Numbered from the stretch's first letter, positions 17,231 through 37,710 are shown. The stretch: 64,000 bases of DNA from a virus (IMGVR_UViG_3300009790_002068:1-64000); one strand, 5' to 3'. Made by a program: numbers and translations. Notes: generated by a model not told the origin, from the sequence alone.

Positions 17231-19882
17231 ATGTATGTAGACGCTTTCTTTGATCGTCAACGTGATAGAATTCACATAGTTGAACGAGACAAAAACCAAA
17301 ACAGACAATACCAAGAACATCAAGCAAAGTATGTAATGTACTATGATGACCCCAAGGGTAAGTTCAAAAGTATATATGGTAATCCTGTAAGTAGGATTCA
17401 ATGTCGAAGTAGTAAAGACTTTAGACGTGAGAAAGCTCTCCATGTGAATGTAAAAACATATGAAAGTGATATGAATCCTGTGTTTAGGTGTTTAGAAGAA
17501 AACTATCTTGGACAGGATGCTCCTAAACTACAAGTAGCATTTTTTGATATTGAGGTTGACTTTGATAAAGACAAAGGTTTTAGTCCACCTGAAGATCCAT
17601 TTAATCCAGTAACAGCAATTTCAGTATATCTACAATGGTGTGATCAACTTGTAACACTATTAACTCCGCCAAGACAAATGGCTAAAGAAGAAGTAGATAG
17701 AATATCTAGTAAGTTTGACAATACATTTGTATTTGAAAAAGAAGCAGACTTGTTAAAAACTTTCTTAGACTTAATTGAAGATGCTGATGTATTAAGTGGT
17801 TGGAATAGTGAAGGTTATGATATTCCTTATATGGTTAATCGTGTTACTCGTGTATTAAGCAAAGACGATACAAGACGTTTTTGTTTGTTTGGACAGTTTC
17901 CTAGAGAACGTAAGTTTGAAAGATTTGGTAAAGAACAAATTACATTTGACTTACTAGGTCGTGTACATATGGACTATATGCAACTGTATCGAAAATACAC
18001 CTACCATGAGATGCATTCTTATTCGTTAGATGCCATCAGTGAATATGAACTAGGTGAAACTAAAGTAGCTTATGAAGGAACATTAGATCAACTGTTTAAC
18101 AATGACTGGGAAAAGTTTATTGAATATTCTAGACAGGATACAATGCTACTTGATAAGCTAGATAAAAAATTAAGGTTTGCTGATTTAAGTAATGAACTTG
18201 CTCACTCTAATACTGTATTACTACAAACAACTATGGGTGCTGTGGCTGTTACAGAACAAGCAATTATTAATGAAGCACACGAACAAGGCTTTGTAGTTCC
18301 AGATAGAAAGAAGCACGAAGGCAATACACAGGCCGCTGGTGCTTATGTGGCATATCCTAAGAAGGGGTTACACGACTGGATTGGTGCTATTGATATTAAT
18401 TCACTATATCCAAGTGCCATTAGAGCATTGAATATGGACCCAGCAACTATTGTAGGGCAATTAAGACCAGACTATAGTGATGCTAATGTTAATGAAGCAA
18501 TGGGCAATAAGAAATCATTTGCTGAGGCTTGGGAAGGCAAGTTTGGTAGCACAGAATACCAAATGGTTATGGACCAAGACAAAGTAGATGAAATTGTTGT
18601 TGAATGGGAAAATGCTCCAAATGAAATATTAACAGGTGCTGAAATCTATAAGAAAATATTCTTAGGTAATGAGAAGTGGATGTTAAGTGCTAATGGTACA
18701 ATATTTACATACGAAACAAAAGGTATTATTCCAGGACTACTTGAACGTTGGTATAAAGAACGTCAAATAATGCAGAAAACAAAAAGCGAACAAACAACAC
18801 CAGAAGGTAAAGCATTCTGGGATAAAAGACAGCTAGTTAAAAAGATTAACCTAAATAGTTTATATGGTGCTATTCTTAATCCAGGTTGTAGATTCTTTGA
18901 TAAACGTATTGGACAAAGTACAACATTAACAGGTAGAACTATTGCTAAATTTATGAGTGCTAAAGTTAATGAAATTGTAACAGGTAAGTTTGATCACAGA
19001 GGTGAAAGTATTATATATGGTGATACAGACTCTGTGTATTTTAGTGCTTGGCCAGTAGTTAAAGATGCTGTAGAAAAGAAAGAAATGGAATGGGATAAAG
19101 ACGTTTGTGTTAAACTTTATGATAATATCTCAGATCAAATTAATGTAGCATTTCCAGAACATATGAAAGATGCTTTTCATTGTCCAAAAGAGAATGGTTT
19201 AATTATTCAAGGTGGTAGAGAGATTGTTGCTATTAAAGGTTTGTATATAACTAAGAAACGTTATGCCGCTTTGATATATGATTTAGAAGGTTCTCGTTTA
19301 GATCGTAATGGTCCAGGTAAAGTAAAAGCTATGGGATTAGATCTTAAACGTAGTGATACACCTAAAGTAATACAAGAGTTTTTAAGTGACATATTGTTAG
19401 GCGTATTAACAGGTGATGAAAGAGATACTGTAATTGAAAAGATTAGAAACTTCAAACAAGACTTTAAACACAGACCTGCTTGGGAAAAAGGTTCACCAAA
19501 ACGTTGTAACAACTTAACAAAGTTTACTGAAGCAGAAAGACGTGAGGGTAAAACAAATATGCCTGGACACGTTAGAGCAAGTATGAATTGGAATACATTG
19601 TGTAAAATGAATCACGACAAGTATAGTGGTGAAATTATGGATGGACAGAAAGTTATTGTTTGTAAGTTAAGACCAAATCCATTAGGAATGAAAAGTGTAG
19701 CATATCCAACAGATCAATTACACTTACCTAAATGGTTTAAAGAATTACCATTTGATGATAGTGAAATGGAACAAACAGTAATAAGCAACAAAGTAGACAA
19801 CTTATTAGGTGTACTTGATTGGGATTTAGTTAGTGATACTGATACCTCAACTACATTTGATGATTTGTTTAGCTTTAATTAG
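17231..19882 (+). CDS. family B DNA polymerase with 3'-5' exonuclease
   Basis: FDIE, GWNSEGYD, DINSLYPS, KxxxNSLYG, YGDTDS, KKRY. Confidence 0.97.
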   Translation: MYVDAFFDRQRDRIHIVERDKNQNRQYQEHQAKYVMYYDDPKGKFKSIYGNPVSRIQCRSSKDFRREKALHVNVKTYESDMNPVFRCLEENYLGQDAPKLQVAFFDIEVDFDKDKGFSPPEDPFNPVTAISVYLQWCDQLVTLLTPPRQMAKEEVDRISSKFDNTFVFEKEADLLKTFLDLIEDADVLSGWNSEGYDIPYMVNRVTRVLSKDDTRRFCLFGQFPRERKFERFGKEQITFDLLGRVHMDYMQLYRKYTYHEMHSYSLDAISEYELGETKVAYEGTLDQLFNNDWEKFIEYSRQDTMLLDKLDKKLRFADLSNELAHSNTVLLQTTMGAVAVTEQAIINEAHEQGFVVPDRKKHEGNTQAAGAYVAYPKKGLHDWIGAIDINSLYPSAIRALNMDPATIVGQLRPDYSDANVNEAMGNKKSFAEAWEGKFGSTEYQMVMDQDKVDEIVVEWENAPNEILTGAEIYKKIFLGNEKWMLSANGTIFTYETKGIIPGLLERWYKERQIMQKTKSEQTTPEGKAFWDKRQLVKKINLNSLYGAILNPGCRFFDKRIGQSTTLTGRTIAKFMSAKVNEIVTGKFDHRGESIIYGDTDSVYFSAWPVVKDAVEKKEMEWDKDVCVKLYDNISDQINVAFPEHMKDAFHCPKENGLIIQGGREIVAIKGLYITKKRYAALIYDLEGSRLDRNGPGKVKAMGLDLKRSDTPKVIQEFLSDILLGVLTGDERDTVIEKIRNFKQDFKHRPAWEKGSPKRCNNLTKFTEAERREGKTNMPGHVRASMNWNTLCKMNHDKYSGEIMDGQKVIVCKLRPNPLGMKSVAYPTDQLHLPKWFKELPFDDSEMEQTVISNKVDNLLGVLDWDLVSDTDTSTTFDDLFSFN

Positions 19883-19889
19883 GAGATAT

Positions 19890-20621
19890 ATGAAAGTAAG
19901 TGTAACAGGTAGTAGAGGATTTATAGGCAGTAGGCTTGTAGAACTCTTAAAAGAATCTGGACACGAAGTAGTAGAATGGGACAAGCTAATTAGCGAAGAT
20001 CATGATATAGCTAATTGGAGACCCGAAGACTGTGACGTGTTAATTCATTTGGCAGGATTAGCCAATGTAAGAAAAAGTTTAGAACAACCTGAGGAATACT
20101 GGTATACAAATGTTGAGTTAAGTAAGAGCTTATTCTTTTTAGCATTGTCAAGTAATATGAGAGTAATATATGCTAGTAGCTCTTGTGCTAAACGTTGGTG
20201 GTTATCTCCTTACGGTACAAGTAAGAAAGCAATGGAATCGATAGCACCGCCTAGAAGTTTAGGTATGAGATTTACAACTGTATACGGACCTGGTAGTAGA
20301 AAAGATATGTTAATAGGTCGTATAAGAGATAACAAGTTAGAATATGTTACAGATCATACTAGGGACTTTATTCACGTAGATGATGTGTGTAGTGCTATTA
20401 TAAAAAACCTAAATAACACTATACTATCTGGTGTAATTGATGTAGGTACTGGTGTTGGTACTAGTGTTCAAGAACTATCACAAATAGCTGGAATGGAAGT
20501 TCCATTAAAAGAAGGCGAACCTTGTGAAGCATCAGAAAATGTAGCAGATACAAGACCTTTACTTGCTACAGGCTGGAAGCCTAAATACAATGTAAAGGAT
20601 TATGTGGAATCAATAATATGA
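19890..20621 (+). CDS. NAD-dependent epimerase/dehydratase
   Basis: TGSRGFIG, HLAG, YASSS, YGTSK, RDFIHVDD; AGGAG RBS before ATG 19890. Confidence 0.9.
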   Translation: MKVSVTGSRGFIGSRLVELLKESGHEVVEWDKLISEDHDIANWRPEDCDVLIHLAGLANVRKSLEQPEEYWYTNVELSKSLFFLALSSNMRVIYASSSCAKRWWLSPYGTSKKAMESIAPPRSLGMRFTTVYGPGSRKDMLIGRIRDNKLEYVTDHTRDFIHVDDVCSAIIKNLNNTILSGVIDVGTGVGTSVQELSQIAGMEVPLKEGEPCEASENVADTRPLLATGWKPKYNVKDYVESII

Positions 20622-21409
20622 AATTTATAGTAGCAGGATATGGATTTGTTGGAAGTGCTATAGGTGATTTACTAGCTAAAAATCACGAAGTAATTCCAGT
20701 TGATCCTAGACTTAATAAAAATAAAATAGAAGATCACATACACAGTTCCGATGGATTGATAATTGCTGTTAGCACACCAGAAGGAACAGATGGTAAGTGT
20801 GATGTATCAAATGTTTGGAATGTTTTACAACAAGTTCGTTGGCCAAAAGACTATGAAGCTAACTTTGAATATCAAATTCCAATATTAATTAAAAGTACAG
20901 TACCTTGGACAGAGTTGGCTAATATGGAAAGGTTTAAGGTAACATACTATCCAGAGTTTTTGAGAGAAGCAACGGCTAAAGAAGATTTTGTTAACCAGAA
21001 GTATTGTATACTTGGAGGTGAGGACACAACGTTTTGGACTGACTTACTTTACAAATCTTTACCTTTAGTCAAACATATTCACAACTGTACAATAGAAGAA
21101 GCAAGTATTGTAAAGTATATGGCTAATAGTTTTCTAGCAACAAAGCTAACGTTCTTTAATGAACTGTTTGAACTATGTAGCAAAACAGGAGCCAATTACG
21201 ATACAGTAAGCAACTTATTGGGATTGGATACAAGAATTGGAACAGGTCATACTACAGTACCTGGGCCAGACGGCAAATATGGTTGGGGAGGTCATTGTTT
21301 TCCAAAAGACACCCAAGCATTACTAACTGTAGCGAAAGATTTAGATGTCAATCTTTCGTTATTAAAATCGGCGATTGAATCGAATAAAAATCACCGAAAA
21401 AAGACTTGA
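20618..21409 (+). CDS. UDP-glucose/GDP-mannose dehydrogenase family protein lacking the C-terminal domain
   Basis: GYGFVG, IKSTV, PEFLRE, KYxxNSFLA, GGHCFPKD. Confidence 0.9.
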   Translation: MKFIVAGYGFVGSAIGDLLAKNHEVIPVDPRLNKNKIEDHIHSSDGLIIAVSTPEGTDGKCDVSNVWNVLQQVRWPKDYEANFEYQIPILIKSTVPWTELANMERFKVTYYPEFLREATAKEDFVNQKYCILGGEDTTFWTDLLYKSLPLVKHIHNCTIEEASIVKYMANSFLATKLTFFNELFELCSKTGANYDTVSNLLGLDTRIGTGHTTVPGPDGKYGWGGHCFPKDTQALLTVAKDLDVNLSLLKSAIESNKNHRKKT

Positions 21410-21458: not shown

Positions 21459-22190
21459 ATGAAAGATTATTTACAAGATATAGTGTTACATACACACGGA
21501 CTAGGTTTTATTGATCTAGTTAAGATTGAAGGCACTGACGAGGCAACAACATTAGAAGGTTTAGCAGAAGACCGTAGTGTTATTGTTAAAGCAACCTTTA
21601 AAAATACAGTAGCAGAGTTTATAGGTACGTTTGGTATGCCAAACTTAAACAAGTTAGACTTGCTATTGAAAATACCAGTTTACAAAGATAAAGCTAAACT
21701 AGAATTGTTACGTCAAGAACGTAATGGTACAGATGTTCCAGTAGGAATTCATTTTGAAAACGAAACAGGTGACTTTAAAAATGATTATCGTTTTATGACA
21801 AGCGAGATTATTAATGAGAAACTAAAGTCAGTTAAGTTTAAAGGTGTTGAATGGAATGTAACTGTACAGCCAACTGTAGCATCAATACAACGTTTGGCAT
21901 ATCAGGCTCAAGTTCATGCTGAAGAAACAACATTTATTGCTAAAACAGAAGATGGACATCTTAAGTTTTACTTTGGTGATCATTCTACTCATGCTGGTAA
22001 CTTTGTATTCCAACCAGATGTAGAAGGTAAAATGACACATGGTTGGGCATGGCCTGTATTACAATTACAACAAATTCTAAAACTGCCAGGTGATAAAACT
22101 ATGATGTTTAGTGATCAGGGTGCCGCTCAAATTAATGTTGATAGTGGTATTGCTGTTTACGAATATATTCTTCCAGCACAGAGCAAGTAA
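21459..22190 (+). CDS. putative DNA polymerase sliding clamp (gp45/PCNA-like)
   Basis: 243 aa, two-domain alpha/beta pattern, C-terminal YEYILPA, position near the polymerase; inference without an HMM. Confidence 0.55.
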   Translation: MKDYLQDIVLHTHGLGFIDLVKIEGTDEATTLEGLAEDRSVIVKATFKNTVAEFIGTFGMPNLNKLDLLLKIPVYKDKAKLELLRQERNGTDVPVGIHFENETGDFKNDYRFMTSEIINEKLKSVKFKGVEWNVTVQPTVASIQRLAYQAQVHAEETTFIAKTEDGHLKFYFGDHSTHAGNFVFQPDVEGKMTHGWAWPVLQLQQILKLPGDKTMMFSDQGAAQINVDSGIAVYEYILPAQSK

Positions 22191-22195
22191 GTACT

Positions 22196-23659
22196 ATGAG
22201 TGACTTACCCACTAATCTAACAGAATCACAAAAAGATTATGCTATCTTTTTGCCTGCTTTAAGCTCGTTTTATTCTACGTTTGTTGGTAAGCAACGTTAC
22301 GAAGAATACACAGCCAACAATAGAATTCCATCTAATATGAATGGACTTGTTGAAAGTGGCAACTGGTTAGAACCAGCGGCCGGCTTATGGCAATATAAAT
22401 GGAGCCTATACTCGGCAGGACACGCCAATTTAGATATTGGACAAGTACCAAAAGAAGATATGACCAGGAACAGAGACCGTGACAACAGTTGGTTGTTAGG
22501 TGACTCAGGTGGCTTCCAAATTGGTAAAGGTAAGTGGGAAGGTGACTGGAGAGCTAATAGCGGTTGTGCTAAAGCACAAAAGAAACGTGAACAAGTGTTG
22601 GCATGGATGGACGAGTACATGGACTATGGAATGGTACTTGATATTCCAGCCTGGGTATCACGTTCTCCAGAAGGTGCTAAAGCTAGTAATATTAGTTCCT
22701 ATCAAGAGGCTGTAGAAGGCACAAAATTTAATAACGAATACTTTATTAAAAATCGTAACGGTAACTGTAAGTTCTTAAATGTATTACAAGGTGAGAACTT
22801 TGCTCAAGCAGATGACTGGTACGAACAAATGAAACACTTCAGTGATCCTAAAGTTTATCCAGACAATCATTTTAATGGTTGGTCAATGGGTGGACAGAAT
22901 ATGTGTGATATACATCTAGCATTGAAACGTTTAGTAACATTACGTTTTGATGGTTTACTTGAACAAGGTAAACAAGACTTCATGCATTTCTTAGGAACTT
23001 CTAAATTAGAATGGGGTGTTATGTTAACTGCCGTCCAACGAGCTGTACGAAAATATCACAATCCAAGTTTTACAATAACTTATGATTGTGCTTCTCCGTT
23101 CTTATGTACAGCTAATGGACAGCAATATACTAATTGGCGTTTGGATCACAAAGGTAAATGGTCTTACATTATGGAGCCTGCTCCAGATGATAAAGGCTTT
23201 GCTCAAGATACAAGACCTTGGGATGAAGAGTGTGAGAAACATCATACAAACTGGTTTCCTAGCCCACTATCAGAGGGACTGAAAGTTAATGATGTTTGTA
23301 TATATGCTCCAGGTGATACAAACAAAAATAATAAAGAAGGCAAGACAAGTTGGGATAGCTTTAGCTATTTCTTAATGATGAATCATAATGTGTACACACA
23401 TATTAGATCAGTACAAGAAGGCAATAAAGCAATGGACTCTGGTTCATATCCTGCTTGGCTTGTTAATGAAACGATCACACGTGAATCAGTAGCAGAAGCA
23501 ATAGATCAAGTATTTGCTATTGACAATCGTGACGAGGCATTAGCCTTTATAGATCACAATACAAAACTTTGGATGAGAGTTCCTGGTACAAGAGGTGCTA
23601 TAGGTAAGAAGACAATTAATGCTTCATCTCAATTCAATGCTTTATTCGAGGAGGAATAA
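22196..23659 (+). CDS. TGT-fold transglycosylase, DpdA-like (7-deazaguanine insertion)
   Basis: DSGGFQ, MVLDIP, NVLQG, MHFLG and TYDCASP correspond to TGT/DpdA motifs. Confidence 0.8.
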   Translation: MSDLPTNLTESQKDYAIFLPALSSFYSTFVGKQRYEEYTANNRIPSNMNGLVESGNWLEPAAGLWQYKWSLYSAGHANLDIGQVPKEDMTRNRDRDNSWLLGDSGGFQIGKGKWEGDWRANSGCAKAQKKREQVLAWMDEYMDYGMVLDIPAWVSRSPEGAKASNISSYQEAVEGTKFNNEYFIKNRNGNCKFLNVLQGENFAQADDWYEQMKHFSDPKVYPDNHFNGWSMGGQNMCDIHLALKRLVTLRFDGLLEQGKQDFMHFLGTSKLEWGVMLTAVQRAVRKYHNPSFTITYDCASPFLCTANGQQYTNWRLDHKGKWSYIMEPAPDDKGFAQDTRPWDEECEKHHTNWFPSPLSEGLKVNDVCIYAPGDTNKNNKEGKTSWDSFSYFLMMNHNVYTHIRSVQEGNKAMDSGSYPAWLVNETITRESVAEAIDQVFAIDNRDEALAFIDHNTKLWMRVPGTRGAIGKKTINASSQFNALFEEE

Positions 23660-23856: not shown

Positions 23857-24378
23857 GTGAAACGTGAGTATTCAGGTACAGTTAAAAACAATGTAAACCT
23901 TTTTGTAGGCACAGAAGTTGAAAAGACTATTGCTTATGAAAAACGTACATTATTTGTAGTTGGTATTCAAAATATTGATTATCTAGAGAAAGTATACGAA
24001 CAAGAAAAGTGTGAACACATATTCTTTGGTGCTAACCATTCTTTAAGATCACGTGATGGTGACTGGGAAAGGTGGGAATCAATGATTACACATTTTCTTA
24101 AGAAAGGTATATTATGTTCTCTAGATATTCCATACGAAGGTTCAAGTTATATACTTGATACGGCAGTAGTTAAGTATGATAATTTCATTCCACAATTAAG
24201 AGTACCTATTCCACACATTCAAGAATGGCCTGCTAATACTATGGTTAAGATTGATGATATAGGTTATGACCAAACTAATCCCGGTGTATGGTGTCACAGT
24301 TTAGAAGACTTAATGGATGGCAACAAATTTACTTGTTGGGACAGATACACTAAAGACAAGGAGATTGAAAATGAGTAA
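23857..24378 (+). CDS. hypothetical protein within the deazaguanine cluster
   Basis: globular ORF (GTEVE, TLFVVG, HIFFGANHS, NPGVWCH). Confidence 0.7.
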   Translation: MKREYSGTVKNNVNLFVGTEVEKTIAYEKRTLFVVGIQNIDYLEKVYEQEKCEHIFFGANHSLRSRDGDWERWESMITHFLKKGILCSLDIPYEGSSYILDTAVVKYDNFIPQLRVPIPHIQEWPANTMVKIDDIGYDQTNPGVWCHSLEDLMDGNKFTCWDRYTKDKEIENE

Positions 24379-25261: not shown

Positions 25262-25435
25262 ATGAAACGTAAAGTATCAAAAAAAGAAACAACTCAAGAA
25301 CAATGGCTTAAAGGCTATTGGAAATGGAAAAATAAGAATTTAATACACATAGCAGATGACGGAACAGTAGTTGAACACAAAGATTGGGTTTGGTTACAAG
25401 AACATAAAAAGAAAAACAAAAAGCGAGGGAAATAA
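25262..25435 (+). CDS. 57-aa basic protein (absent from the ORF track)
   Basis: MKRKVSKKETTQEQWLKGYWKWK...; its stop overlaps the next ATG (TAATG). Confidence 0.6.
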   Translation: MKRKVSKKETTQEQWLKGYWKWKNKNLIHIADDGTVVEHKDWVWLQEHKKKNKKRGK

Positions 25436-25911
25436 TGGAATCACAGATGAGACAAGTAGCAATGGCAGAAACCAGTAGCGACATTAAACAAAAAGCTAAA
25501 AAAATGGTCTGGGTTACGTTTAAAAAGGAAGGTATTCATAAATACCCTGCGGCATTGGACGATCCAAAGCTGGCAACAGGAGATTGGGACGATGTATCGT
25601 TTCTTGGCTATCCTCACCGTCATATTTTTCATTTCAGGGTGTGGATCGAAGTGTTCCACGACGATAGAGATATCGAATTCATCCAGTTCAAAAGATGGCT
25701 CGAAAGACTCTACTCTACAGGAACAAGTAGTAACGGAGATAAAGGAGAGGGCTCAGCCGACTCTGAAGTGCTCCTACTAGACTACAAATCATGTGAAATG
25801 ATTTCAGACGAACTTTTTGACAAAATTACTGAACGCTATCCAGGTCGTTCAGTTTGGATCGAAGTCTCCGAAGATGGAGAGAACGGTTCTTTTATTCCTT
25901 ACAACATATGA
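25435..25911 (+). CDS. QueD-paralogous T-fold protein, DpdL-like (putative CDG decarboxylase)
   Basis: LGYPHRHIF fits LxxxHRHxF; SCEM and EVSEDGENG T-fold elements. Confidence 0.7.
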   Translation: MESQMRQVAMAETSSDIKQKAKKMVWVTFKKEGIHKYPAALDDPKLATGDWDDVSFLGYPHRHIFHFRVWIEVFHDDRDIEFIQFKRWLERLYSTGTSSNGDKGEGSADSEVLLLDYKSCEMISDELFDKITERYPGRSVWIEVSEDGENGSFIPYNI

Positions 25912-25930
25912 TAGACAAAGGATTTAAAAA

Positions 25931-26149
25931 ATGGAAAAGCAAGTTGAACAGGTCTTCAGTGACCTCGATGGATACAAACGATTCTGTATTCAATTTGGCT
26001 GGGTATTTAACGAAGCAGACTTGTACAATAGTAACAAAAAGTCTTACAAAAGCTATATGGACTTTAAAGAAGGTAAAAGGGTTCCTAACAACTGGGTTAA
26101 GGACCAAAAAAACATTGGTAAACGTAAATGGATTATAAAAAAGAAATAG
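25931..26149 (+). CDS. hypothetical protein
   Basis: AAAGGA RBS; DLD.Y..FC..FG.VFNEADLY. Confidence 0.65.
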   Translation: MEKQVEQVFSDLDGYKRFCIQFGWVFNEADLYNSNKKSYKSYMDFKEGKRVPNNWVKDQKNIGKRKWIIKKK

Positions 26150-26412
26150 TGCTGGATATTTCTAAATACAGTAATAGACATCCATGGAATACAGATGCCC
26201 AAGGTAATAGCATTGAGGGAGGTGCCCTTAATGCCAATTATACATTAGTTGATGCTGTTGGTAACGTATGTAACCAACTAGGTAAACATGGTTATACATA
26301 TGGCAAAGACTTTGTATGGGACGATAATGCTTGGACAGATGATATGGACGATGCTATATCAGTCAAGTATAATGATCCTAAAATAGAAACTTTATTAGGT
26401 ATAAAAGGATGA
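26128..26412 (+). CDS. hypothetical protein
   Basis: overlapping ORF within the operon. Confidence 0.55.
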   Translation: MDYKKEIVLDISKYSNRHPWNTDAQGNSIEGGALNANYTLVDAVGNVCNQLGKHGYTYGKDFVWDDNAWTDDMDDAISVKYNDPKIETLLGIKG

Positions 26413-27476
26413 CAGTATACATTGTAGACATTGAGGCTGTAGATACTCGTTACACTAAACAGTGGAAAGAGCATTTACCTAAACAACTAGGTGAACACTA
26501 TAACGGCGGCGATGTTGTAGTAATTAGTGGAGGAGAAACTCCACAAGCAACTACACCAGGTGCTTTTTTAAACTTTGGTGGAACAAATGTTTACAAGTCT
26601 AATCAATTAGAACAAATTGGTACTATGTTTTGTGAAGGTAAAATCAAAGATGGTGATTACTTTTTATATACAGATGCTTGGAATCCTACAGTAATACAGT
26701 TAAAGTATATGGCGTCATTACTTGGTGTTGATATTAGAATTGGTGGTATGTGGCACGCCGGCAGTTATGATCCACAAGACTTCTTAGGTAGACTAATTGG
26801 AGATGCTTCGTGGGTTAGAAATGCTGAAATGAGTATGTATGAATGTTATGATGATAATTTCTTTGCTACAAAGTTTCATATTGATTTATTTACAAATACA
26901 TTTTGGAATGATGACAGAGATATAGATAGACAACTGTTACACAGTATTAAACAAGTTGGTTGGCCTATGGAGTATTTAAAAGAAACTCTTGAGCCATATA
27001 AAGGTGCTCCAAAATATAATACTATTGTATTCCCACACAGAGTAGCACCAGAAAAACAACCAGAAATTTTTAAAGATTTGGCAGAGAGTATGCCACAATA
27101 TAATTGGGTAATAGCACAAGACAAGCAATTATCTAAAGATGAATACCATAAACTACTAGCTACAAGTAAATTAGTCTTTAGTGCTAATTTACAAGAAACA
27201 TTAGGTATAAGCTGGTACGAGGGTTCTTTGGTAGGTACACTACCATTAGTACCCGACAGGTTAAGTTACAGTGAAATGGCGACACCTGATGTATTATATC
27301 CTAGCGAATGGACAGAGTCGTGGGATAGTTACATAAAACATAAAGACAAGCTAATAGCACATATTGATAAAATGATGACACTAAATGATTATGAATCAGT
27401 ATGTGATCAATTAGCAAAGAAAGTAGATAAGTTTTTTGATGGCAAAAGACTTTATGAAGCAACAGAAACCTTTTAA
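26409..27476 (+). CDS. GT-B (GT4-like) glycosyltransferase
   Basis: FPHRVAPEKQPE and ETLGISWYE (Ex7E) motifs, LVPDRLSY.E. Confidence 0.8.
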   Translation: MTVYIVDIEAVDTRYTKQWKEHLPKQLGEHYNGGDVVVISGGETPQATTPGAFLNFGGTNVYKSNQLEQIGTMFCEGKIKDGDYFLYTDAWNPTVIQLKYMASLLGVDIRIGGMWHAGSYDPQDFLGRLIGDASWVRNAEMSMYECYDDNFFATKFHIDLFTNTFWNDDRDIDRQLLHSIKQVGWPMEYLKETLEPYKGAPKYNTIVFPHRVAPEKQPEIFKDLAESMPQYNWVIAQDKQLSKDEYHKLLATSKLVFSANLQETLGISWYEGSLVGTLPLVPDRLSYSEMATPDVLYPSEWTESWDSYIKHKDKLIAHIDKMMTLNDYESVCDQLAKKVDKFFDGKRLYEATETF

Positions 27477-27477
27477 T

Positions 27478-27503
27478 GGCAATCCACTGCCTTAACATCG
27501 GAG
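27478..27503 (+). promoter_or_regulatory. candidate RBS-sequestering pseudoknot upstream of folE
   Basis: stem GGCA/TGCC, loop ATCCAC, linker TTAACATC; loop TCC can pair with GGA of the GGAG RBS. Confidence 0.45.
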
Positions 27504-27509
27504 TAATAA

Positions 27510-28196
27510 ATGAAGAAAAGTGAAGAAATAAAACAAAGACTAAAAGACTCAAATACAAAATTTTGGGCTGGCGACAATATTAGTGAACATTTAGAAGAAG
27601 GAGATAAACAAGCTCTTATCGAAGAGGCAACTGTAGCCTTTGAAAATGTTTTAGACAGTTTAGTAATTGATCGTGAAAACGATCCAAACAGTATGGACAC
27701 TGGAAGACGTATGGCTAAGATGTATATCAATGAGATTATGTCTGGTCGTTATAATCCAATGCCAAATCCGAATTCCTTTCCTAACTATGTAGAAGATGGT
27801 TATGAAGGAATGTTAGTAGTAAGAAGTGAACTAAAAAGTCTTTGTTCACATCACCACCAACCAGTACAAGGTGTAGCTTATATTGGTATTATTGCTGGAC
27901 CTAAATTATTAGGGTTAAGCAAGTATACTAGAATAGCTCAATGGTGTGCTATGAGGGGGACATTACAAGAAGAACTTAATGTAATGATCGCTAACGAAAT
28001 ACAAAAGCATACAGGTTCAAAAGACGTGGGTGTTTATGTACAAGCAACACATGGCTGTTGTGAAAATAGAGGAATAAGAGCTAAAAGTAGTTTAACCCAA
28101 ACTACGGTTCTTAGAGGCGACTTTAAAGATGTTTCAGCTACTAAAAAAGAATTTATGGATAACATCAAATTACAACAAGAGTTTGCCAAAGACTAA
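27510..28196 (+). CDS. folE: GTP cyclohydrolase I
   Basis: SLCSHHH, GLSK..R, LQEEL, HGC...RG motifs. Confidence 0.95.
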   Translation: MKKSEEIKQRLKDSNTKFWAGDNISEHLEEGDKQALIEEATVAFENVLDSLVIDRENDPNSMDTGRRMAKMYINEIMSGRYNPMPNPNSFPNYVEDGYEGMLVVRSELKSLCSHHHQPVQGVAYIGIIAGPKLLGLSKYTRIAQWCAMRGTLQEELNVMIANEIQKHTGSKDVGVYVQATHGCCENRGIRAKSSLTQTTVLRGDFKDVSATKKEFMDNIKLQQEFAKD

Positions 28197-28210: not shown

Positions 28211-28858
28211 ATGATGATAAAATCATTATTAGAAGGTGTTGATACTAAACTAGTTAGAAATTTAGTAATCTTACACACATTAGTAATTGCTGTTAGTAAT
28301 TACTTGGTTACCATCCGGTTCAATTTATTTCCGGGTGCCGACTTACCATTGTTTGGTGAGTTTCCACTGGCGGCGGCGGCATTTACGTTTCCGATCGTTG
28401 TGGTAGCAACTGACCTAACAGTTAGGCTAGTTGGTAAAGAAGCAGGAAGAGCCGTTGTAGCAATGGCTATTATTCCGGCTATTATTGCCTCGGTGCTTGT
28501 ATTATTGGCACTAGGTGATGAACACGCCTACAGAGTAGGTTTAGCAAGTGGTACGGCTTATGCTATTGGTACTATGCTTGACGTGTACGTTTTCCAATAT
28601 ATTAGAGAGAAGTATACTGATATGTGGTGGGCGGCACCGGCTATTTCAACTATCGCGGCCAACATCATTGACACTTATGCTTTCTTCTTTACAGCATTCG
28701 CTGGTTCAACAGATGCTGAAGGAAACTTAACGTGGATAGGCGAAAACTGGCATATAGTGGCACAAAACAACACACTAACTAAAATTGTAGTTGGTTTAAT
28801 TGTGTTCCTACCAGCTTATGGCGTATTACTCAATTACTTAAAAAATAGAGTAAAATAA
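28211..28858 (+). CDS. yhhQ: preQ0/queuosine precursor transporter (Vut_1 family)
   Basis: IAVSNYLV, FTFP...ATDLTVRL.G...R, RVGLAS, LDVYVF, IDTY.FF..AF. Confidence 0.88.
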   Translation: MMIKSLLEGVDTKLVRNLVILHTLVIAVSNYLVTIRFNLFPGADLPLFGEFPLAAAAFTFPIVVVATDLTVRLVGKEAGRAVVAMAIIPAIIASVLVLLALGDEHAYRVGLASGTAYAIGTMLDVYVFQYIREKYTDMWWAAPAISTIAANIIDTYAFFFTAFAGSTDAEGNLTWIGENWHIVAQNNTLTKIVVGLIVFLPAYGVLLNYLKNRVK

Positions 28859-31895: not shown

Positions 31896-34800
31896 ATGTT
31901 TAAATTTAAATCAATTTTAATAATAGGTCTAGTATTTCTTTTAACTGCCTGTGGAGGCGGTGGTGGTGGAACACCTAGTGGTGTTTCTATTAGTCCTAAT
32001 AACACAACAGTATTAAGTACAAACATTCAAAACAATATAAGTGCTATTGACCATGCCTTAGAAACTTTAACAAGTGTAAATGGTATTAGTGCTACAAGTG
32101 TTGATAAATCAAAATTCAAATCAATGAAAGATGGCTTTGATGCTATCAAAAGTTTAAAGACAGAGTACGATAGTTTAAGTAGTGCTGATAAACTTATACT
32201 AGCAAACGTTATGGTTCAAGTAGACCTTGCTGGTTGTAAAACAGGAAGTGGTGCTCAAACATCTTGTCAGAAGTCAATGGCATTAAGTGAAGTTATAGAT
32301 TTTGGTTATAATATGTATACTAGATATTACGAGCCATATCAAAACTTTTGGACTGACGGTGCTACTACAGGTTATGTAGATGAAACATCATCAGAGTTTG
32401 CTAGTATTAAAGCAAGAGTAGAAGCTGACGAATTAAAAAGTAGAGATGATTTAGTATATAATGTTAACGAAGGAAGTGATCCTGTTAAGACAGGTGATCC
32501 TGAACACGTTATAGTAGAATATACAGAAGATAAAAAAATTGTAGTAAGTACAGGTTCAACTAGAACTGTTACAATTAAAACTGAAACAGTAACTTATAGT
32601 GCTGGTACAGTTTCTGATTATTGGCCAACAGACTTTGACGAAACAACTGCTTCAGGATGTAACTGTTCTAAAACATATACAAACAAGTATACGGCAACTG
32701 AAACTTATAATACTCATAGAATAGATACAATCACTTATAAAAGAACTGATACAAAACATACTTGGACTGATGGAAAGGTTACAACTGAATATGGTGAGCC
32801 AACAGTAACTAAAACTGTAACAGGTGACGTTGTAGAAACAGATGTTGTTCAATCAAACTTTAATACAACTTCTACACTTCAAAATACAACTAGTAATGCC
32901 GTAACTGAAACAAGTCAAGAAAGTATAGTAGTTCCAAATTATGATGTTGTAGAAAAGGTAATTATTTCTACAGATGGTACAAGAATTAAATCAACATATG
33001 ATTCAACTGTAGTTGAAGTAACTGGTACTGTTACTAAAACATATACAGACACATACCAAATCACAACAACTTATAGTTCATATAGAGAAGATACAGTAAC
33101 TTATAAAAGAACTGATACAAAAATTAATTATAGCGACGGAACAAGTAAAACTATAACTGGTACTGCTGAAAAGGTTAGTACTGTAACAGGTAACGTAGTA
33201 GAACATGACGTAACTGACAGTGAGCCTGTTAGAACTGCTAGGGTATTAATATCAACAGTTGATTCGAATAGTGTTGCTTATACAGACTCAGATGAAAACT
33301 TAGGTACTAAAACAATAGGCTATTCAAATAATGCTAATGACTTTTTAGATAGTGAAACAAGAGCATATTGTGGTAGTTCATATAGTGCTTGTTCATTAGA
33401 TAGTTTAACAGTTTTCACAGATGACAATCTTGCTAACGGTACAGGTACAAGTTTTCAACATATAGCAGAAGCAGGTATTAATGATGCTTGGGCTAGAGGT
33501 TGGACTGGTAAAGGTGTTAATGTAGGTATTATTGATACAGGTGTTAATATTCATCACGATGAATTAGATGGACAAATAGGCGGTGTATACAATAACGGTT
33601 CAACAGACTGGGACGGACACGGTTCACACGTTGCTGGTACTATTGTTGCTAAAAAAGATGGCAAAGGTACAGTAGGTGTAGCATTTGATTCTAAATTGTA
33701 TGTTGTTAGAGAAACAGGTTTGAATTACAATAAAGAAGAGTATTGGAATTACTTTAAAGAAAATAACGTTGATGTAGTTAACGTTAGTATAAATGGAAGA
33801 TGGGACTATAATGTTACATTCGACGACAGTTATGTTGTTGGTAGTGATGTTAATAATCAAAACGACACTTATAAATCATTATCACTTATTGATGGTAATA
33901 AAAACTTATACAAGTGGAACAAGACATTATTCCAAAACGGTTCATACCACAATGTTAATACAAAGATAGCAATGGATGATGACGGAAACATACTTTACGG
34001 AGGCATAGACAGTATAGAAGCATTGAGTACATTTATGTCAGGAAGTGAAATTATATTTGTTAATAGTGCTGGTAACCAAGGTTATAGTGTGGCGGCGACT
34101 CCGGGTTGGTATGCTACTGTAACAGACGACAATGGCGATTTAATGCTAGACGGAAGAATGATTATAGTTGGTTCATATGATCCTGCTAGTGGTACAAACA
34201 ATAGCTATTCAAATGGTGCTGGACATATTTGTAGAGAAGTAGTAAATGATGTTTGTCAAGATGATTATACAGTAAGTGACTTTTATATTAGAGCACCAGA
34301 GGCGTTTACATCATTAGATAATGTTGGTAATGGATATATTGATATGTCAGGTACTAGTATGGCGGCTCCTGTTGTAACAGGTAGTATTGCTTTAGTTAGA
34401 CAGATGTGGCCACATATGACAGGTGAGAACACAGTTAAATTAATTTTACAAACTGCTGATAAAAGTTATGACGGATATGATGTAGGTGTAGACGGACAAG
34501 GTAGATTAGATATGGACAAAGCTACACAGCCAGTAGGTGCTACAGGTATTCCAACAGATGGTAGAACAACTGGTAATACTATTAGTTCAACAGGATACAT
34601 AGCAGGTGGTAGTTCAATACCAAATGAAGTTAGTTCGTTGATTGTAGAAATTGATGAAGCTAGTTTTAATAGAGAATGGTTAGTGCCAATTGCTGAAGCT
34701 CACGTTAATATAGATACTGCTTTCCATAGCTTTACAAATTATGCTGGTATGACTGCTATTGGTACAAATGACTTTGCTTTACATTTAACTGAAAATGATA

Positions 34801-35351
34801 CAAACAAAATTGCTGTCACATTAGACGGTACTACATTTGGTTATATCAAAGAAGAAGGACAGTATCTAGGAAAATACTTTAATGGTATGTTTGATATTGG
34901 TGAAACACAAACGGCTTTCTTACAAAAAGGTAATACTTGGCAGACAGGTAACAATACTTGGTTAAGTGCTAATGTAAATTTAGGATATACTCAAGTTGAA
35001 ACAGTAGGACATTCGCTAATTAACAGTTCAGATGATTTATTAAGTTACGGTTGGAGTACTCAAGTTAATCATAATGTTGATGAGAATTGGTCACTTACAA
35101 GCTTCTTAGCACAGCCTGTTAGTGTTGTTTCCGGAGACATGAACATTAATGCTCCTACAAGTAGAAATGGTGATACAGTAAGCTATACAGATACAACGTA
35201 TAGTCAAAAGGTTCAAACAGAAACTGATATTGGTATTACTGCTAAATTTGTAAAAGAAAACTTTAACTTTAGTATTGGTGGTGTTAGTAGATTTAATACA
35301 GTAAATGGCGACACTTATAACGTAACTACTTCCGTTGGTTGGAAGTTTTAA
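31896..35351 (+). CDS. S8 subtilase lipoprotein with Thr-rich repeats and a C-terminal beta-barrel-like domain
   Basis: lipobox LLTAC; triad IIDTG / HGSHVAG / GTSMAAP; oxyanion SAGN; ends VGWKF. Confidence 0.88.
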   Translation: MFKFKSILIIGLVFLLTACGGGGGGTPSGVSISPNNTTVLSTNIQNNISAIDHALETLTSVNGISATSVDKSKFKSMKDGFDAIKSLKTEYDSLSSADKLILANVMVQVDLAGCKTGSGAQTSCQKSMALSEVIDFGYNMYTRYYEPYQNFWTDGATTGYVDETSSEFASIKARVEADELKSRDDLVYNVNEGSDPVKTGDPEHVIVEYTEDKKIVVSTGSTRTVTIKTETVTYSAGTVSDYWPTDFDETTASGCNCSKTYTNKYTATETYNTHRIDTITYKRTDTKHTWTDGKVTTEYGEPTVTKTVTGDVVETDVVQSNFNTTSTLQNTTSNAVTETSQESIVVPNYDVVEKVIISTDGTRIKSTYDSTVVEVTGTVTKTYTDTYQITTTYSSYREDTVTYKRTDTKINYSDGTSKTITGTAEKVSTVTGNVVEHDVTDSEPVRTARVLISTVDSNSVAYTDSDENLGTKTIGYSNNANDFLDSETRAYCGSSYSACSLDSLTVFTDDNLANGTGTSFQHIAEAGINDAWARGWTGKGVNVGIIDTGVNIHHDELDGQIGGVYNNGSTDWDGHGSHVAGTIVAKKDGKGTVGVAFDSKLYVVRETGLNYNKEEYWNYFKENNVDVVNVSINGRWDYNVTFDDSYVVGSDVNNQNDTYKSLSLIDGNKNLYKWNKTLFQNGSYHNVNTKIAMDDDGNILYGGIDSIEALSTFMSGSEIIFVNSAGNQGYSVAATPGWYATVTDDNGDLMLDGRMIIVGSYDPASGTNNSYSNGAGHICREVVNDVCQDDYTVSDFYIRAPEAFTSLDNVGNGYIDMSGTSMAAPVVTGSIALVRQMWPHMTGENTVKLILQTADKSYDGYDVGVDGQGRLDMDKATQPVGATGIPTDGRTTGNTISSTGYIAGGSSIPNEVSSLIVEIDEASFNREWLVPIAEAHVNIDTAFHSFTNYAGMTAIGTNDFALHLTENDTNKIAVTLDGTTFGYIKEEGQYLGKYFNGMFDIGETQTAFLQKGNTWQTGNNTWLSANVNLGYTQVETVGHSLINSSDDLLSYGWSTQVNHNVDENWSLTSFLAQPVSVVSGDMNINAPTSRNGDTVSYTDTTYSQKVQTETDIGITAKFVKENFNFSIGGVSRFNTVNGDTYNVTTSVGWKF

Positions 35352-35364
35352 TTAAGGAGAAAAA

Positions 35365-35559
35365 ATGGATTGGTATACAACTGGATGGCTACTTGCTGTT
35401 TATACTATAGGAACATTATTTGGTTATAGAATGGCTTATAGAAAGAACTTTGTTATTATTTCAGAAACTATAGACGGCCTAAGACGTGCTGGCTTTCTAA
35501 AAGTTAAAGAAACAGGTGATGACAATTATGAAATATTAAAGGTAAAACAAAATGATTAA
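35365..35559 (+). CDS. small membrane protein
   Basis: AAGGAG RBS; N-terminal TM. Confidence 0.6.
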   Translation: MDWYTTGWLLAVYTIGTLFGYRMAYRKNFVIISETIDGLRRAGFLKVKETGDDNYEILKVKQND

Positions 35560-36031
35560 GAAGAAAATTTATACTTGGCGTGACGTTGAAAAAATGTGTT
35601 CACAATTACTTGTACAACTTTACAATAGTGAATGGAGACCTGACTACATTGTAGGTATTACACGTGGCGGTAATGTACCTGCTACAATTTTAAGTAATAT
35701 GACAGGTATTAGATGTGAGGCTGTTAAGGTTGCTTTACGTGATGGCGAAACAGGTAAGTCTGGGGACAGTATTGCTTGGATGGCCGAAGATGCTAAACTA
35801 GGCAAAAATATTTTAGTAGTAGATGATATAAATGACACTGGTGCTACATTTGAATGGTTATCAAAGGACTGGGGTCTTAACGGTGGCGACAATGTTCGTT
35901 TTGCTACACTAACTGAAAACTTATCAAGTAATTTCGACGGTGTTGATTATTACTGTGATGAAGTTAACAAAGCTGAAGAAGATGTTTGGCTTGTTTATCC
36001 TTGGGAAAATGTAGGAGAATACAATGGATAA
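35552..36031 (+). CDS. purine phosphoribosyltransferase (Gpt-like)
   Basis: GITRGG..PA, LVVDDINDTGAT (PRPP loop), WLVYPWE. Confidence 0.9.
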   Translation: MIKKKIYTWRDVEKMCSQLLVQLYNSEWRPDYIVGITRGGNVPATILSNMTGIRCEAVKVALRDGETGKSGDSIAWMAEDAKLGKNILVVDDINDTGATFEWLSKDWGLNGGDNVRFATLTENLSSNFDGVDYYCDEVNKAEEDVWLVYPWENVGEYNG

Positions 36032-36401: not shown

Positions 36402-36887
36402 ATGGCTTATCAAAGTACAAAAACATATGGTAATGACAGAGGCTTTTCATGTGCTTTTAGGCAATGGAGTGCTGACAGTCATTGTAATTTAATTCACGGA
36501 TACTCATTAGGGTTTAAATTTATATTTGAAGCTGAAGAGCTAGACGAACGTAATTGGGTTTACGATTTTGGCAACTGTAAATGGATCAAAGAATGGATAG
36601 AAGATACATTCGATCATAAAACGGCTGTTGATATTAACGATCCTTATATTGAAACTTTTAGAGAACTAAACAAAGCAGGACTAATTGATTTAAGAGAAAT
36701 GGATGGTGCTGGTTGTGAGAAATTTGCTGAACATACTTTTTCATTTGTTGCTCCTAAAGTATTAGAAGGCACAGGCGGTCGTGTAAGACTAAAGAGTGTA
36801 GAAGTATTTGAACACGGAGCCAATAGTGCTGTCGTAGAAGATTTAATTCTACCAGAACATATTAACGAAAGTAGAGAGGTACATTAA
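36402..36887 (+). CDS. queD: 6-carboxy-5,6,7,8-tetrahydropterin synthase
   Basis: [25 protein letters not shown]. Confidence 0.9.
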
Positions 36888-37471
36888 TGGCATTAATTCC
36901 AATAGTTATTGAACAAACAAGTAAAGGTGAAAGAAGTTATGATATCTATTCACGTTTAATGAAAGATAGAATTATAATGTTAAGTGGTGTTGTAGAAGAA
37001 AACATGGCTAACATTATAACTGCTCAACTTTTATTTTTAGAGAGTCAAGACCCTGATAAAGATATTACACTTTATATTAATTCACCAGGCGGTAGTGTAA
37101 CTGATGGAATGAGTATGCTTGATACTATGAACTTTGTTAAATGTGATATATCAACAGTAGTAATGGGCCAGGCTTGTTCAATGGGTTCATTGTTAGCAAG
37201 TTCAGGTACTAAAGGCAAACGTTTTATGTTACCTAATGCTAGGCACATGATACATCAACCTTTAGGTGGGTTTAGTGGTCAAGCTACTGACGTAGAAATT
37301 AGAGCAAACGAATTGTTACGTTGGAAGAAAGTATTAACTGAAGTGTATGTTACTAACACAGGTAAAGACTTTGATACGTTATCTAAGGATATGGATAGAG
37401 ATAACTTTATGACAGCAGAAGAGGCCGTAGCTTACGGACTTGCTGATAAAATTGTTGAGGAGAGAACATAA
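36887..37471 (+). CDS. clpP: ATP-dependent Clp protease proteolytic subunit
   Basis: [29 protein letters not shown]. Confidence 0.97.
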
Positions 37472-37710
37472 TGCCAATACCAGAAAAAGTAATTATGCCA
37501 GCAAGTAAAGACCCAGGTAAAGGACACTTTTACGTTAGTTTAATAAAGAGTGCTATTAGAATTGGTGCTGGTGTAGGACTAATACTAGCCGGTATGGCAT
37601 TTAGTAGTCATAATGGAGACCTTTGGCCTGATATTGCTTATTGGTTAAAGTTTGCTGGTGCTGGCTTTATACTTGCTGAAGCATTAGGAATTTTAGAAGA
37701 GATTGTTTAA
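37471..37710 (+). CDS. small membrane protein
   Basis: HFYVSLIKSAIRI...AEALGILEE. Confidence 0.65.
   Translation: MPIPEKVIMPASKDPGKGHFYVSLIKSAIRIGAGVGLILAGMAFSSHNGDLWPDIAYWLKFAGAGFILAEALGILEEIV

Follow-up and report, generated by a model that had tools for sequence, protein, structure and literature searches.

A glycosyltransferase family associated with DpdA-type DNA transglycosylases in phages and bacterial islands, with a possible role in placing sugar on 7-deazaguanine in DNA

The window analysed here is the first 64 kb (64,000 nucleotides) of an 83-kb virus record from IMG/VR, IMGVR_UViG_3300009790_002068. It encodes a glycosyltransferase (GT; positions 26409-27476) that lies among genes for the synthesis and insertion of 7-deazaguanine. 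The genomic contexts of its homologues are strong evidence that this GT family works with DpdA-type DNA transglycosylases. By analogy with enzymes that glycosylate modified bases in nucleic acids, we propose with moderate confidence that the GT adds a sugar to a 7-deazaguanine base, most likely once the base has been inserted into DNA. The 83-kb record was rated 23% complete by CheckV, indicating that its source is a large phage. The G+C content of the window is about 35%, and a megablast search of the 12-kb region against GenBank phages returned a tRNA fragment as the sole match. All genes around the GT, from the family B DNA polymerase gene to the YhhQ gene, are on the + strand. The genes most directly concerned are the following (L numbers below denote the loci compared).

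22196-23659, + strand: DpdA-like DNA guanine transglycosylase, a remote relative of tRNA-guanine transglycosylase (TGT), with a DSGGFQ motif
25435-25911, + strand: DpdL, a QueD-like T-fold protein and proposed 7-carboxy-7-deazaguanine decarboxylase (LxxxHRHxF motif; phrog_17812)
26409-27476, + strand: DpdA/DpdL-associated GT of 355 amino acids (aa), assigned to the GT-B fold and GT4-like retaining type from its AlphaFold2 fold and EX7E motif
27510-28196, + strand: FolE, GTP cyclohydrolase I, the first step of the deazaguanine pathway (PF01227, E 6.7e-37)
36402-36887, + strand: QueD, PTPS family (PF01242, E 8.8e-19)
37710-38639, + strand: probable divergent QueE (26% identity, E 3e-9, to a protein of locus L115 that matches NCBIfam QueE models)

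Linkage of the GT to DpdA and DpdL in phage genomes

A tblastn search of 50,697 GenBank phage records found GT homologues in 22 records (six groups) and DpdL in 28. The two genes occur together in 17 records, compared with 0.012 expected by chance (hypergeometric P 2e-54, calculated over records that are not independent). Counted by lineage, five of the six groups carry both (P 3e-16). In the remaining five of the 22 GT records, the GT lies beside a Gat-QueC-like gene. The preliminary description had proposed looking for co-occurrence of the GT family with dpdA, dpdL and folE across phages; the co-occurrence was found, and the homologues are not unlinked to deazaguanine genes.

In PA5oct-like phages, the DpdA-like gp168, the GT gp167 and DpdL gp166 are consecutive, with QueE close by. 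The order in ACP17 is QueD, FolE, gp122, DpdA, GT, DpdL, QueE, and that in X1 is FolE, a gene similar to 3'-phosphoadenosine-5'-phosphosulfate (PAPS) reductase, a PIG-L-like gene, a small open reading frame (ORF), GT, DpdA, DpdL, QueE. BCSR5 carries the X1-type block, plus QueD and DpdL 3 kb upstream. The GT directly adjoins DpdA in PA5oct, ACP17, X1 and BCSR5. In Phosso, where DpdL, GT, FolE and QueE are found together, it directly adjoins DpdL, and a DpdA-like gene is located at another genome site. Among the GenBank groups, the window DpdA matches only the DpdA of PA5oct, and that of ACP17 barely aligns. The block shared by X1 and BCSR5 (L086:8332-12416, L087:7960-12430) consists of the PAPS-reductase-like PP-loop gene, the PIG-L-like gene, the small ORF, GT and DpdA; the PIG-L-like protein is a weak match (24.3 bits against a cut-off of 28.2).

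The group of the Xanthomonas phage PhiXhv-12 has no DpdL. In this phage (L088:7669-10903), a Gat-QueC-like gene is followed by a BshB/PIG-L-type deacetylase gene and then by the GT homologue. The first of these genes is annotated GlmS (glutamine-fructose-6-phosphate aminotransferase) and holds a QueC domain (170.9 bits), and FolE and a DpdA-like gene are located away from the GT. Given this QueC domain together with FolE and the DpdA-like gene in the genome, we rejected PhiXhv-12 as a deazaguanine-free GT context. The arrangement suggests transfer of an N-acetylhexosamine followed by its deacetylation, on a QueC-type deazaguanine.

Among uncultured phages, the order DpdA, 173-aa protein, DpdL, GT is retained in 80 close IMG/VR relatives (65-92% identity). 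DpdL was found in 79 of these loci, DpdA in 68 and FolE in 58; the misses lie mainly where contigs end. The 80 loci form one syntenic lineage and were taken as one observation. Four distant family members used as queries retrieved 28 further loci, 22 of which have DpdL; two of the misses are cut at a contig edge, and the other four are L110-L113. When 25 loci were clustered, the most frequent partner families of the GT were DpdL (23 loci), FolE (21), QueE-like proteins (19) and QueD (15). The GT module is present in phages with PolB or DnaE replication modules and in several gene orders. It is also found with divergent DpdA types, namely those of the window and PA5oct, of ACP17 and X1, of BCSR5, and the DSGA type of DnaE phages, and the linkage holds down to about 24% identity.

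In the DnaE-polymerase lineage, QueD, QueE, FolE, DpdL, a B12-type radical SAM gene and the GT are followed by a gene for a protein with LDSGA, HGF and VDS motifs. Judged from these motifs, this DSGA-type (A3) protein is a putative further type of DpdA; its family profile retrieved no TGT from PDB and matched nothing in four phage records. The radical SAM protein (430-500 aa) is encoded between DpdL and the GT in nine of these loci (L097, L099, L100, L102-L107; e.g. L100:8616-9998), and its best NCBIfam similarity is to B12-dependent PhpK-type methyltransferases. This position hints at extra carbon chemistry on the base. Two clusters encode two divergent GT paralogues each (L091:1584-2639 and 9986-11095; L092:4772-5956 and 10001-11095), one adjoining FolE and the other adjoining DpdL, which suggests two glycosylation steps or two specificities. 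Such paired paralogues are in keeping with genuine sugar chemistry.

Bacterial islands and GT phylogeny

A scan of bacteria with one genome per species returned 34 loci, and DpdA is near the GT in 28 of them. Eight of the 34 are phage-like contigs binned into metagenome-assembled genomes and show the synteny of the window. The other 26 loci (L127-L152) are mostly from Alphaproteobacteria, many of them isolates, on contigs of 0.1-3 Mb, with Magnetospirillum, Shimia, Sulfitobacter, Pelagibacterium, Azospirillum and Pseudooctadecabacter among the hosts. The GT occurs together with a DpdA-like gene bearing the DSGG motif in 22 of these 26 chromosomal-looking loci, and in 21 of these 22 no more than about 640 nt separates the two genes. 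The EX7E pattern is present in 21 of 23 bacterial-island GTs, and DpdL in 15 of the 26 loci. Across the 26 loci, a LuxR response regulator recurs in 18, a MASE1 histidine kinase in 16 and an integrase in 10, and in 12 a YhhQ-like gene immediately precedes the GT. Genes for a HEPN protein, a CoiA-like nuclease and an AAA_15 ATPase also recur in these integrase-bearing islands (e.g. L129:9492-14318, L133:6036-14053). The GT-DpdA islands may be bacterial DNA-marking or defence islands, and a prophage origin is possible.

In a quick maximum-likelihood tree of 67 GTs, the island GTs nest among phage GTs, near those of PA5oct and Phosso. Within 3 kb, 40 of the 67 have both DpdA and DpdL, 13 DpdA only and 5 DpdL only, so that 58 have at least one of the two. 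Neither glycosylated deazaguanine in DNA nor a DpdA-linked glycosyltransferase was found in the literature searched, which did not extend to supplements. The bacterial-island context of the GT may be new, and perhaps also its Gat-QueC, deacetylase and PAPS-reductase contexts.

Fold and conserved motifs of the GT

The GT has no match in Pfam (E up to 0.01), PHROG or NCBIfam, PF00534 and PF13439 included. A single-sequence search against PDB gave no match; the family profile alone reached the Actinobacillus glucosyltransferase AmGGT (PDB 8xsg, E 3.4e-6), in an alignment that pairs the EX7E motifs of the two. Clustered at 90% identity, this large family has at least 8000 matching clusters; among 50%-identity representatives, 1164 clusters match with E values of 0.001 or less and 238 with E values of 1e-30 or less.

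An alignment of 62 homologues was used for the conservation analysis and for an AlphaFold2 model (pLDDT 94.5, pTM 0.92), in which both halves consist of alternating strand and helix elements. Foldseek and VIA-align group the model with retaining GT-B enzymes. The highest VIA-align Z scores are those to sucrose-phosphate synthase (25.9), BshA (25.1) and MshA (25.0), and the next-best structural matches are GlgM, PglA, LmbT, glycogen synthase, OtsA, PimA and SenB. Matches to GT4/GT5/GT20-type retaining enzymes reach Z 21-26 over about 290-320 aligned residues, with model residues 1-355 covered. In BFVD, a cyanophage protein labelled 'DNA alpha-GT' appears at rank 36 (TM 0.53).

The EX7E motif corresponds to E263..E271. 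E271, Q66, D89, G118 and E140 are invariant in the 62 homologues, and H116, H210, R211, K216 and E263 are at least 90% conserved. The HR-x4-K stretch spans 210-216, and H210, R211 and K216 may be the equivalents of the GT4 Arg/Lys pair that binds the donor diphosphate. The GT-B enzyme with an Ex7E motif named in the preliminary description is thus borne out by the predicted fold, the structural matches and the conservation of E263 and E271, although the GT is outside the curated sequence families. The fold and conserved motifs look like those of a working nucleotide-sugar transferase.

Deazaguanine genes of the window

The DpdL-like product carries LxxxHRHxF in place of the QueD motif CxxxHGH, and its true start is probably an internal ATG near 25504. 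LxxxHRHxF is described as the DpdL signature in the text of Cui et al. (2023, PMC10516641). The protein is 40-62% identical to the products of the DpdL-position genes of Phosso, ACP17, PA5oct, X1 and BCSR5. The DpdA-like protein (487 aa) has no Pfam match by itself and shares 35% identity (E 7e-88) with PA5oct gp168, whose gene is directly upstream of the PA5oct GT. Searched against PDB, the DpdA-family profile matched TGT chains only (49 sequences, best E 3.8e-4). FolE matches NCBIfam models with up to 128.9 bits, under their equivalog cut-offs, and the QueE-like protein (37710-38639) has no Pfam match of its own. A radical SAM gene at 60808-61968 (- strand) was also considered as QueE and rejected: it is of the twitch/SPASM type, with this domain at the N-terminus (NF033640, 225.9 bits), and unlinked to the module.

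QueC is not present in the window, and no queA, queG or queF was seen. Further along the record, at 78106-79452 on the - strand (L153:14106-15452), two tandem ORFs of about 216 and 231 aa show weak matches to the C-terminal part of QueC (22.3 and 18.4 bits). They could be QueC-like PP-loop proteins and bear on the base of this phage. The first of them also matches the QueC-like CBASS protein Cap9 (E 0.002).

Sugar-nucleotide genes and other neighbours

Further genes of the region are listed below, the last two for context only.

23857-24378, + strand: conserved 173-aa protein between DpdA and DpdL, recognized by its conservation in relatives
26128-26412, + strand: 94-aa ORF between DpdL and GT, a lineage-specific insert
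28211-28858, + strand: YhhQ-type queuosine-precursor transporter (PF02592, E 3.5e-20; TIGR00697, 96.9 bits against a cut-off of 50.95)
35552-36031, + strand: phosphoribosyltransferase (PRT)-domain protein, homologous (E 2e-58) to the PRT gene of close relatives
19890-20621, + strand: short nucleotide-sugar epimerase/dehydratase-like protein of the short-chain dehydrogenase/reductase (SDR) type (PF01370, E 2.1e-26)
20618-21409, + strand: truncated UDP-glucose/NDP-sugar dehydrogenase-like protein (PF00984, PF03721)
17231-19882, + strand: family B DNA polymerase (PF00136, PF03104; phrog_262, E 1.7e-198)
21459-22190, + strand: putative sliding clamp (phrog_12062; 36% identity to a Phosso gene annotated as sliding clamp)

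The preliminary description had placed the dpdL-like gene, the GT, folE and yhhQ in one tightly packed run, with an epimerase and a UDP-glucose dehydrogenase between the polymerase and the clamp/DpdA-like genes. Both arrangements are as described. The genes of the run are all on the + strand, with gaps of 33 nt between GT and FolE and of 14 nt between FolE and YhhQ, and the 94-aa ORF overlaps the GT start by 4 nt. The two sugar enzymes, however, are shortened. The epimerase-like gene, which probably starts at the ATG at 19890, encodes the GxxGxxG and YxxxK motifs, and its product is much shorter than canonical enzymes (NCBIfam 69 bits against a cut-off of 262). The dehydrogenase-like protein matches positions 68-298 of the 413 of TIGR03026 (152 bits against a cut-off of 189.8). 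It keeps the catalytic Cys motif GGHCFPKD and is without the C-terminal UDP-binding domain. In L012, L079 and L115, a gene similar to UDP-glucose dehydrogenase (UGDH) directly follows the GT. Taken over the homologues, the sugar-tailoring neighbours of the GT are SDR, UGDH-like and PIG-L/BshB-like deacetylase genes, and their recurrence, together with the conserved catalytic-type residues, argues that the GT really transfers a sugar.

The 94-aa ORF is found in one of 80 close relatives and has no NCBIfam match. Of 80 close loci, 72 encode the 173-aa protein, a homologue of ACP17 gp122 (E 4e-11); searches of Pfam, PHROGs, NCBIfam and Atlas and a profile search of PDB gave no match for it. Between the GT and FolE, a PRT gene is present in 45 of 50 close loci and a HIT-domain gene in 33 of 50. 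In the window the PRT gene is beside QueD, and in PA5oct it is gp163; other instances of it are L066:2403-2960 and L001:10330-10764. PF00156 matches the PRT of a relative and PA5oct gp163. The PRT may salvage guanine released by DpdA, or convert the deaza base to a nucleotide. A ClpP protease gene (36887-37471) is wedged between QueD and the QueE-like gene, and other phage genes encode a ClpB-like AAA+ chaperone (2836-5154) and a 1151-aa subtilase (31896-35351). At the Rfam gathering level, five tRNAs only and no preQ1 riboswitch were detected in the window, and no search at E-value level was run.

Proposed pathway

FolE, QueD and QueE form an established route to 7-carboxy-7-deazaguanine (CDG), which in this phage would be made by FolE, QueD and the QueE-like protein. 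DpdL would then remove the carboxyl group of CDG to give 7-deazaguanine, a role proposed, and not proven, in the text of Cui et al. (2023, PMC10516641). DpdA would exchange guanine in DNA for 7-deazaguanine, and the GT, as a presumably active retaining GT-B enzyme of GT4-like type from a family of dedicated DpdA partners, would move a sugar from an NDP-sugar onto the deazaguanine. Transfer after insertion is favoured by analogy with QTMAN and QTGAL, which act on queuosine in tRNA, and with glucosylation in T4. The predicted product is a glycosylated 7-deazaguanine, a second protective layer comparable to the glucosylation of hydroxymethylcytosine in T4. The sugar could be attached at C7 or C8 as a C-glycoside, or at N2 as in huimycin.

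Two reports on cultured phages fit a step that has gone unrecognised. Reconstitution with dpdL and dpdA of ACP17, which did not include the GT, failed according to the text of PMC10516641, and PA5oct DNA is reported to resist enzymes cutting at G, with the modified base not identified in that source. A sugar-bearing 7-deazaguanine could explain both.

We tentatively put forward a bolder version, in which DpdA and the GT form a two-gene core that writes glycosylated 7-deazaguanine into DNA, which would be the first sugar-bearing purine known in any DNA and possibly a C-glycoside at the nucleophilic C7/C8 of the pyrrole ring, freed by DpdL decarboxylation. If this is true, the mark would occur in very abundant large phages of marine and freshwater environments as well as in phages cultured on Pseudomonas, Xanthomonas, Acidovorax, Burkholderia and Sinorhizobium. 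It would also occur in the integrase-bearing islands of Alphaproteobacteria, as a new bacterial epigenetic or self-marking system. Lineages would tailor the mark further, with a deacetylase yielding an amino sugar, a B12-type radical SAM enzyme, or a second GT yielding a disaccharide.

Evidence against sugar transfer to deazaguanine and alternative explanations

The preliminary description had suggested that the GT glycosylates the deazapurine in DNA, by analogy with glycosylated queuosine in tRNA. The linkage and the active-looking fold and motifs agree with this suggestion; the analogy itself is chemically loose, and the T4 glucosyltransferases were not matched in Pfam or among the structural matches listed. 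Several observations weigh against a sugar on 7-deazaguanine in DNA. On the side of chemistry, 7-deazaguanine has no hydroxyl or amine at C7 that could serve as an O or N nucleophile, so that the sugar would have to be on C7/C8, an unprecedented GT4-like C-glycosylation, or on N2, and an N2-linked sugar would occupy the minor groove. The base in these phages may be other than plain 7-deazaguanine. The weak QueC-like ORFs outside the window make its identity uncertain in this phage, and the bacterial islands without DpdL imply that some systems may use a base other than 7-deazaguanine. The argument that a strict link to DpdL would prove a requirement for an unsubstituted C7 is likewise weakened by these islands and by the PhiXhv-12 context.

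On the side of the enzyme, the nearest solved structures (BshA, MshA, SenB, LmbT and sucrose-phosphate synthase) belong to enzymes with small-molecule or sugar acceptors. The T4 alpha- and beta-glucosyltransferase families gave no Pfam match for the GT, and neither enzyme is among the Foldseek and VIA-align matches listed. By net charge and isoelectric point (pI), which are a crude stand-in for a DNA-binding basic cleft, the family is mostly acidic (median pI 5.7, with 6 of 62 members above 7.5), and the window GT has a net charge of -17. The genomic evidence has exceptions as well. The synteny of the close relatives is largely shared ancestry rather than independent evidence, and among them the epimerase-like gene (44 of 80) and the dehydrogenase-like gene (12 of 80) are optional extras. 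Neither DpdA nor DpdL is within 3 kb of 9 of the 67 tree GTs, and in small Prim-Pol phages (L110-L113) no deazaguanine gene is present in the DNA examined and no DpdL-like protein adjoins the GT. Of the 28 DpdL-positive GenBank records, 11 are without the GT, phiST among them. According to the text of PMC10516641, phiST DNA carries plain 7-deaza-2'-deoxyguanosine (dDG), and the DNA of Vibrio phage VP1 is also reported to carry plain dDG. The presence of DpdL without a GT match in phiST indicates that the GT is not needed for dDG.

Some of these points suit other roles for the GT. A serious alternative, though in our estimate rather unlikely, is that the GT glycosylates a free 7-deazaguanine-type base (or CDG) before insertion and that a matching DpdA then inserts the sugar-bearing base; the end product would still be glycosylated deazaguanine in DNA. 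With HuiG there is already a GT that works on a free 7-deazapurine, and the closest structures to the window GT are small-molecule glycosyltransferases. The acceptor-side domain of the window GT is acidic, with many conserved Asp, Glu, Trp and Tyr residues, and GT and DpdL are 40-62% identical across the GenBank groups while DpdA is divergent. TGT-family enzymes accept bulky C7 substituents such as queuine, which also counts for this order of steps; against it, they read the N2/N1 face deep in the pocket, where an N2-glycosylated base should not fit. The tight and often overlapping GT-DpdA gene pair fits either order. We consider it unlikely that the GT belongs to the pathway without glycosylating the deazapurine, either as a DNA-binding or DpdA-assisting partner, functionally comparable to DpdB of bacterial Dpd systems, or by glycosylating something else, for instance a protein or some other base of DNA. 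The awkward chemistry of a sugar on 7-deazaguanine would be avoided, and of the conserved links of the GT the strongest is that to DpdA, which extends to islands lacking DpdL or synthesis genes. A pure scaffold, however, would not need the conserved catalytic-type residues, which persist as EX7E in 21 of 23 island GTs, and the sugar-tailoring neighbours argue for real glycosyl transfer. A hydroxymethylase, as needed for a hydroxymethylpyrimidine acceptor, would be of the thymidylate-synthase family, and no gene of that family is present in the 83-kb record, which is about 23% complete.

The other alternatives take the GT away from DNA. FolE and two PTPS-fold proteins (QueD and DpdL) nearby could make a pterin, with the GT as a pteridine glycosyltransferase like BGluT, and the tetrahydrobiopterin glucosyltransferase PsBGluT does match structurally (Z 21.8, rmsd 3.2, 293 residues). 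This is very improbable: BGluT is at rank 32 and resembles the GT no more than generic GT4 enzymes do, the presence of QueE directs the pathway towards deazapurines, the most constant partner of the GT is DpdA, a TGT-type nucleic-acid enzyme, and some islands have GT and DpdA without FolE or PTPS proteins. An ordinary cell-surface or polysaccharide GT, carried as a moron gene in the replication module by descent only, would account for homologues named 'glycosyltransferase involved in cell wall biosynthesis', for the epimerase- and dehydrogenase-like genes typical of such loci, and for the 80 closest loci being one syntenic lineage. It is very doubtful given that the linkage persists to about 24% identity, through rearrangements, different polymerases and bacterial islands, and given the 17 GenBank records shared with DpdL where chance would give 0.012. 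Glycosylation of queuosine-type bases in tRNA, comparable to eukaryotic manQ and galQ, has precedents in QTMAN and QTGAL, and the phage tRNAs and the YhhQ transporter would suit it. We regard it as highly improbable, as none of the five tRNAs of the window has a GUN anticodon, and queA, queG and queF are missing from the genes seen. Moreover, PA5oct has the same module, and its DNA is the reported target of protection from G-cutting enzymes; the text of Cui et al. (PMC10516641) associates full substitution of the DNA with the DpdA3-type enzymes of phiST and CP220. Sugar transfer to a deazaguanine already inserted in DNA remains the interpretation that we prefer.

Comparison with known systems

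A large GT family means that a sugar-bearing mark may be common in environmental viromes and could bias methods based on sequencing or restriction. The GT is also a possible tool for sugar-tagging DNA with 7-deaza-dG, which is easily made by PCR, and the GT-DpdA pair of bacterial islands is a possible new host DNA-marking system.

The dDG system of phiST (FolE, QueD, QueE, DpdL and DpdA3; PMC10516641) resembles the window in its apparently QueC-less set of FolE, QueD and a QueE or QueE-like gene, its DpdL with LxxxHRHxF, and a remote TGT-like DpdA encoded beside replication genes. The main text of that paper has no word beginning with 'glycosyl'. phiST has no detectable GT homologue and plain dDG, whereas the window and many other lineages include the GT in the module, often with PRT and sugar-tailoring genes.

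The eukaryotic enzymes QTMAN (GTDC1) and QTGAL (B3GNTL1) are reported to glycosylate queuosine in tRNA after its insertion by TGT (PMC11755703). Like the GT proposed here, they act on a 7-deazaguanine derivative inserted by a TGT-family enzyme. Their substrate is tRNA, however, and the sugar is placed on a hydroxyl of the cyclopentenediol of queuosine, which the expected base of the window does not have. GTDC1 is itself a GT4-type enzyme.

HuiG of Kutzneria albida, from the huimycin cluster, is reported to attach GlcNAc to the 2-amino group (N2) of a free 7-deazapurine, and like the window GT it is encoded with FolE/QueD/QueE-type genes. It differs in acting on a free base in secondary metabolism, within a cluster that has QueC and no DpdA. 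According to a preprint, whose mining rule excludes loci containing dpdA, GTs of huimycin-family clusters are of PF13439; neither this nor any other Pfam family is matched by the window GT.

BshA and MshA, which belong to GT4 and serve in making bacillithiol and mycothiol, rank near the top of the structural matches of the window GT, with an identity of only about 12% in the structural alignments. They pair with PIG-L/LmbE deacetylases. The GT homologue of the PhiXhv-12 group likewise adjoins a BshB/PIG-L-like deacetylase, and X1 and BCSR5 show weak cases of this pairing. The window GT, in contrast to these enzymes of thiol synthesis, has a DNA-modification gene context, and the window has no deacetylase.

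The T4 alpha- and beta-glucosyltransferases have the GT-B fold and add sugar to an already modified base of phage DNA as a second anti-restriction layer. The same logic is proposed for the window GT, with the difference that its acceptor would be a purine without a hydroxymethyl handle. To our knowledge, DNA base glycosylations are known only on pyrimidines (glucosyl- and arabinosyl-hydroxymethylcytosine and base J), and the known deazaguanine marks in DNA are all small. Unlike the T4 glucosyltransferase genes, the window GT gene is physically coupled to that of the base-inserting enzyme, and a sugar-bearing 7-deazaguanine, if true, would be a novel type of base that unites two anti-restriction strategies.

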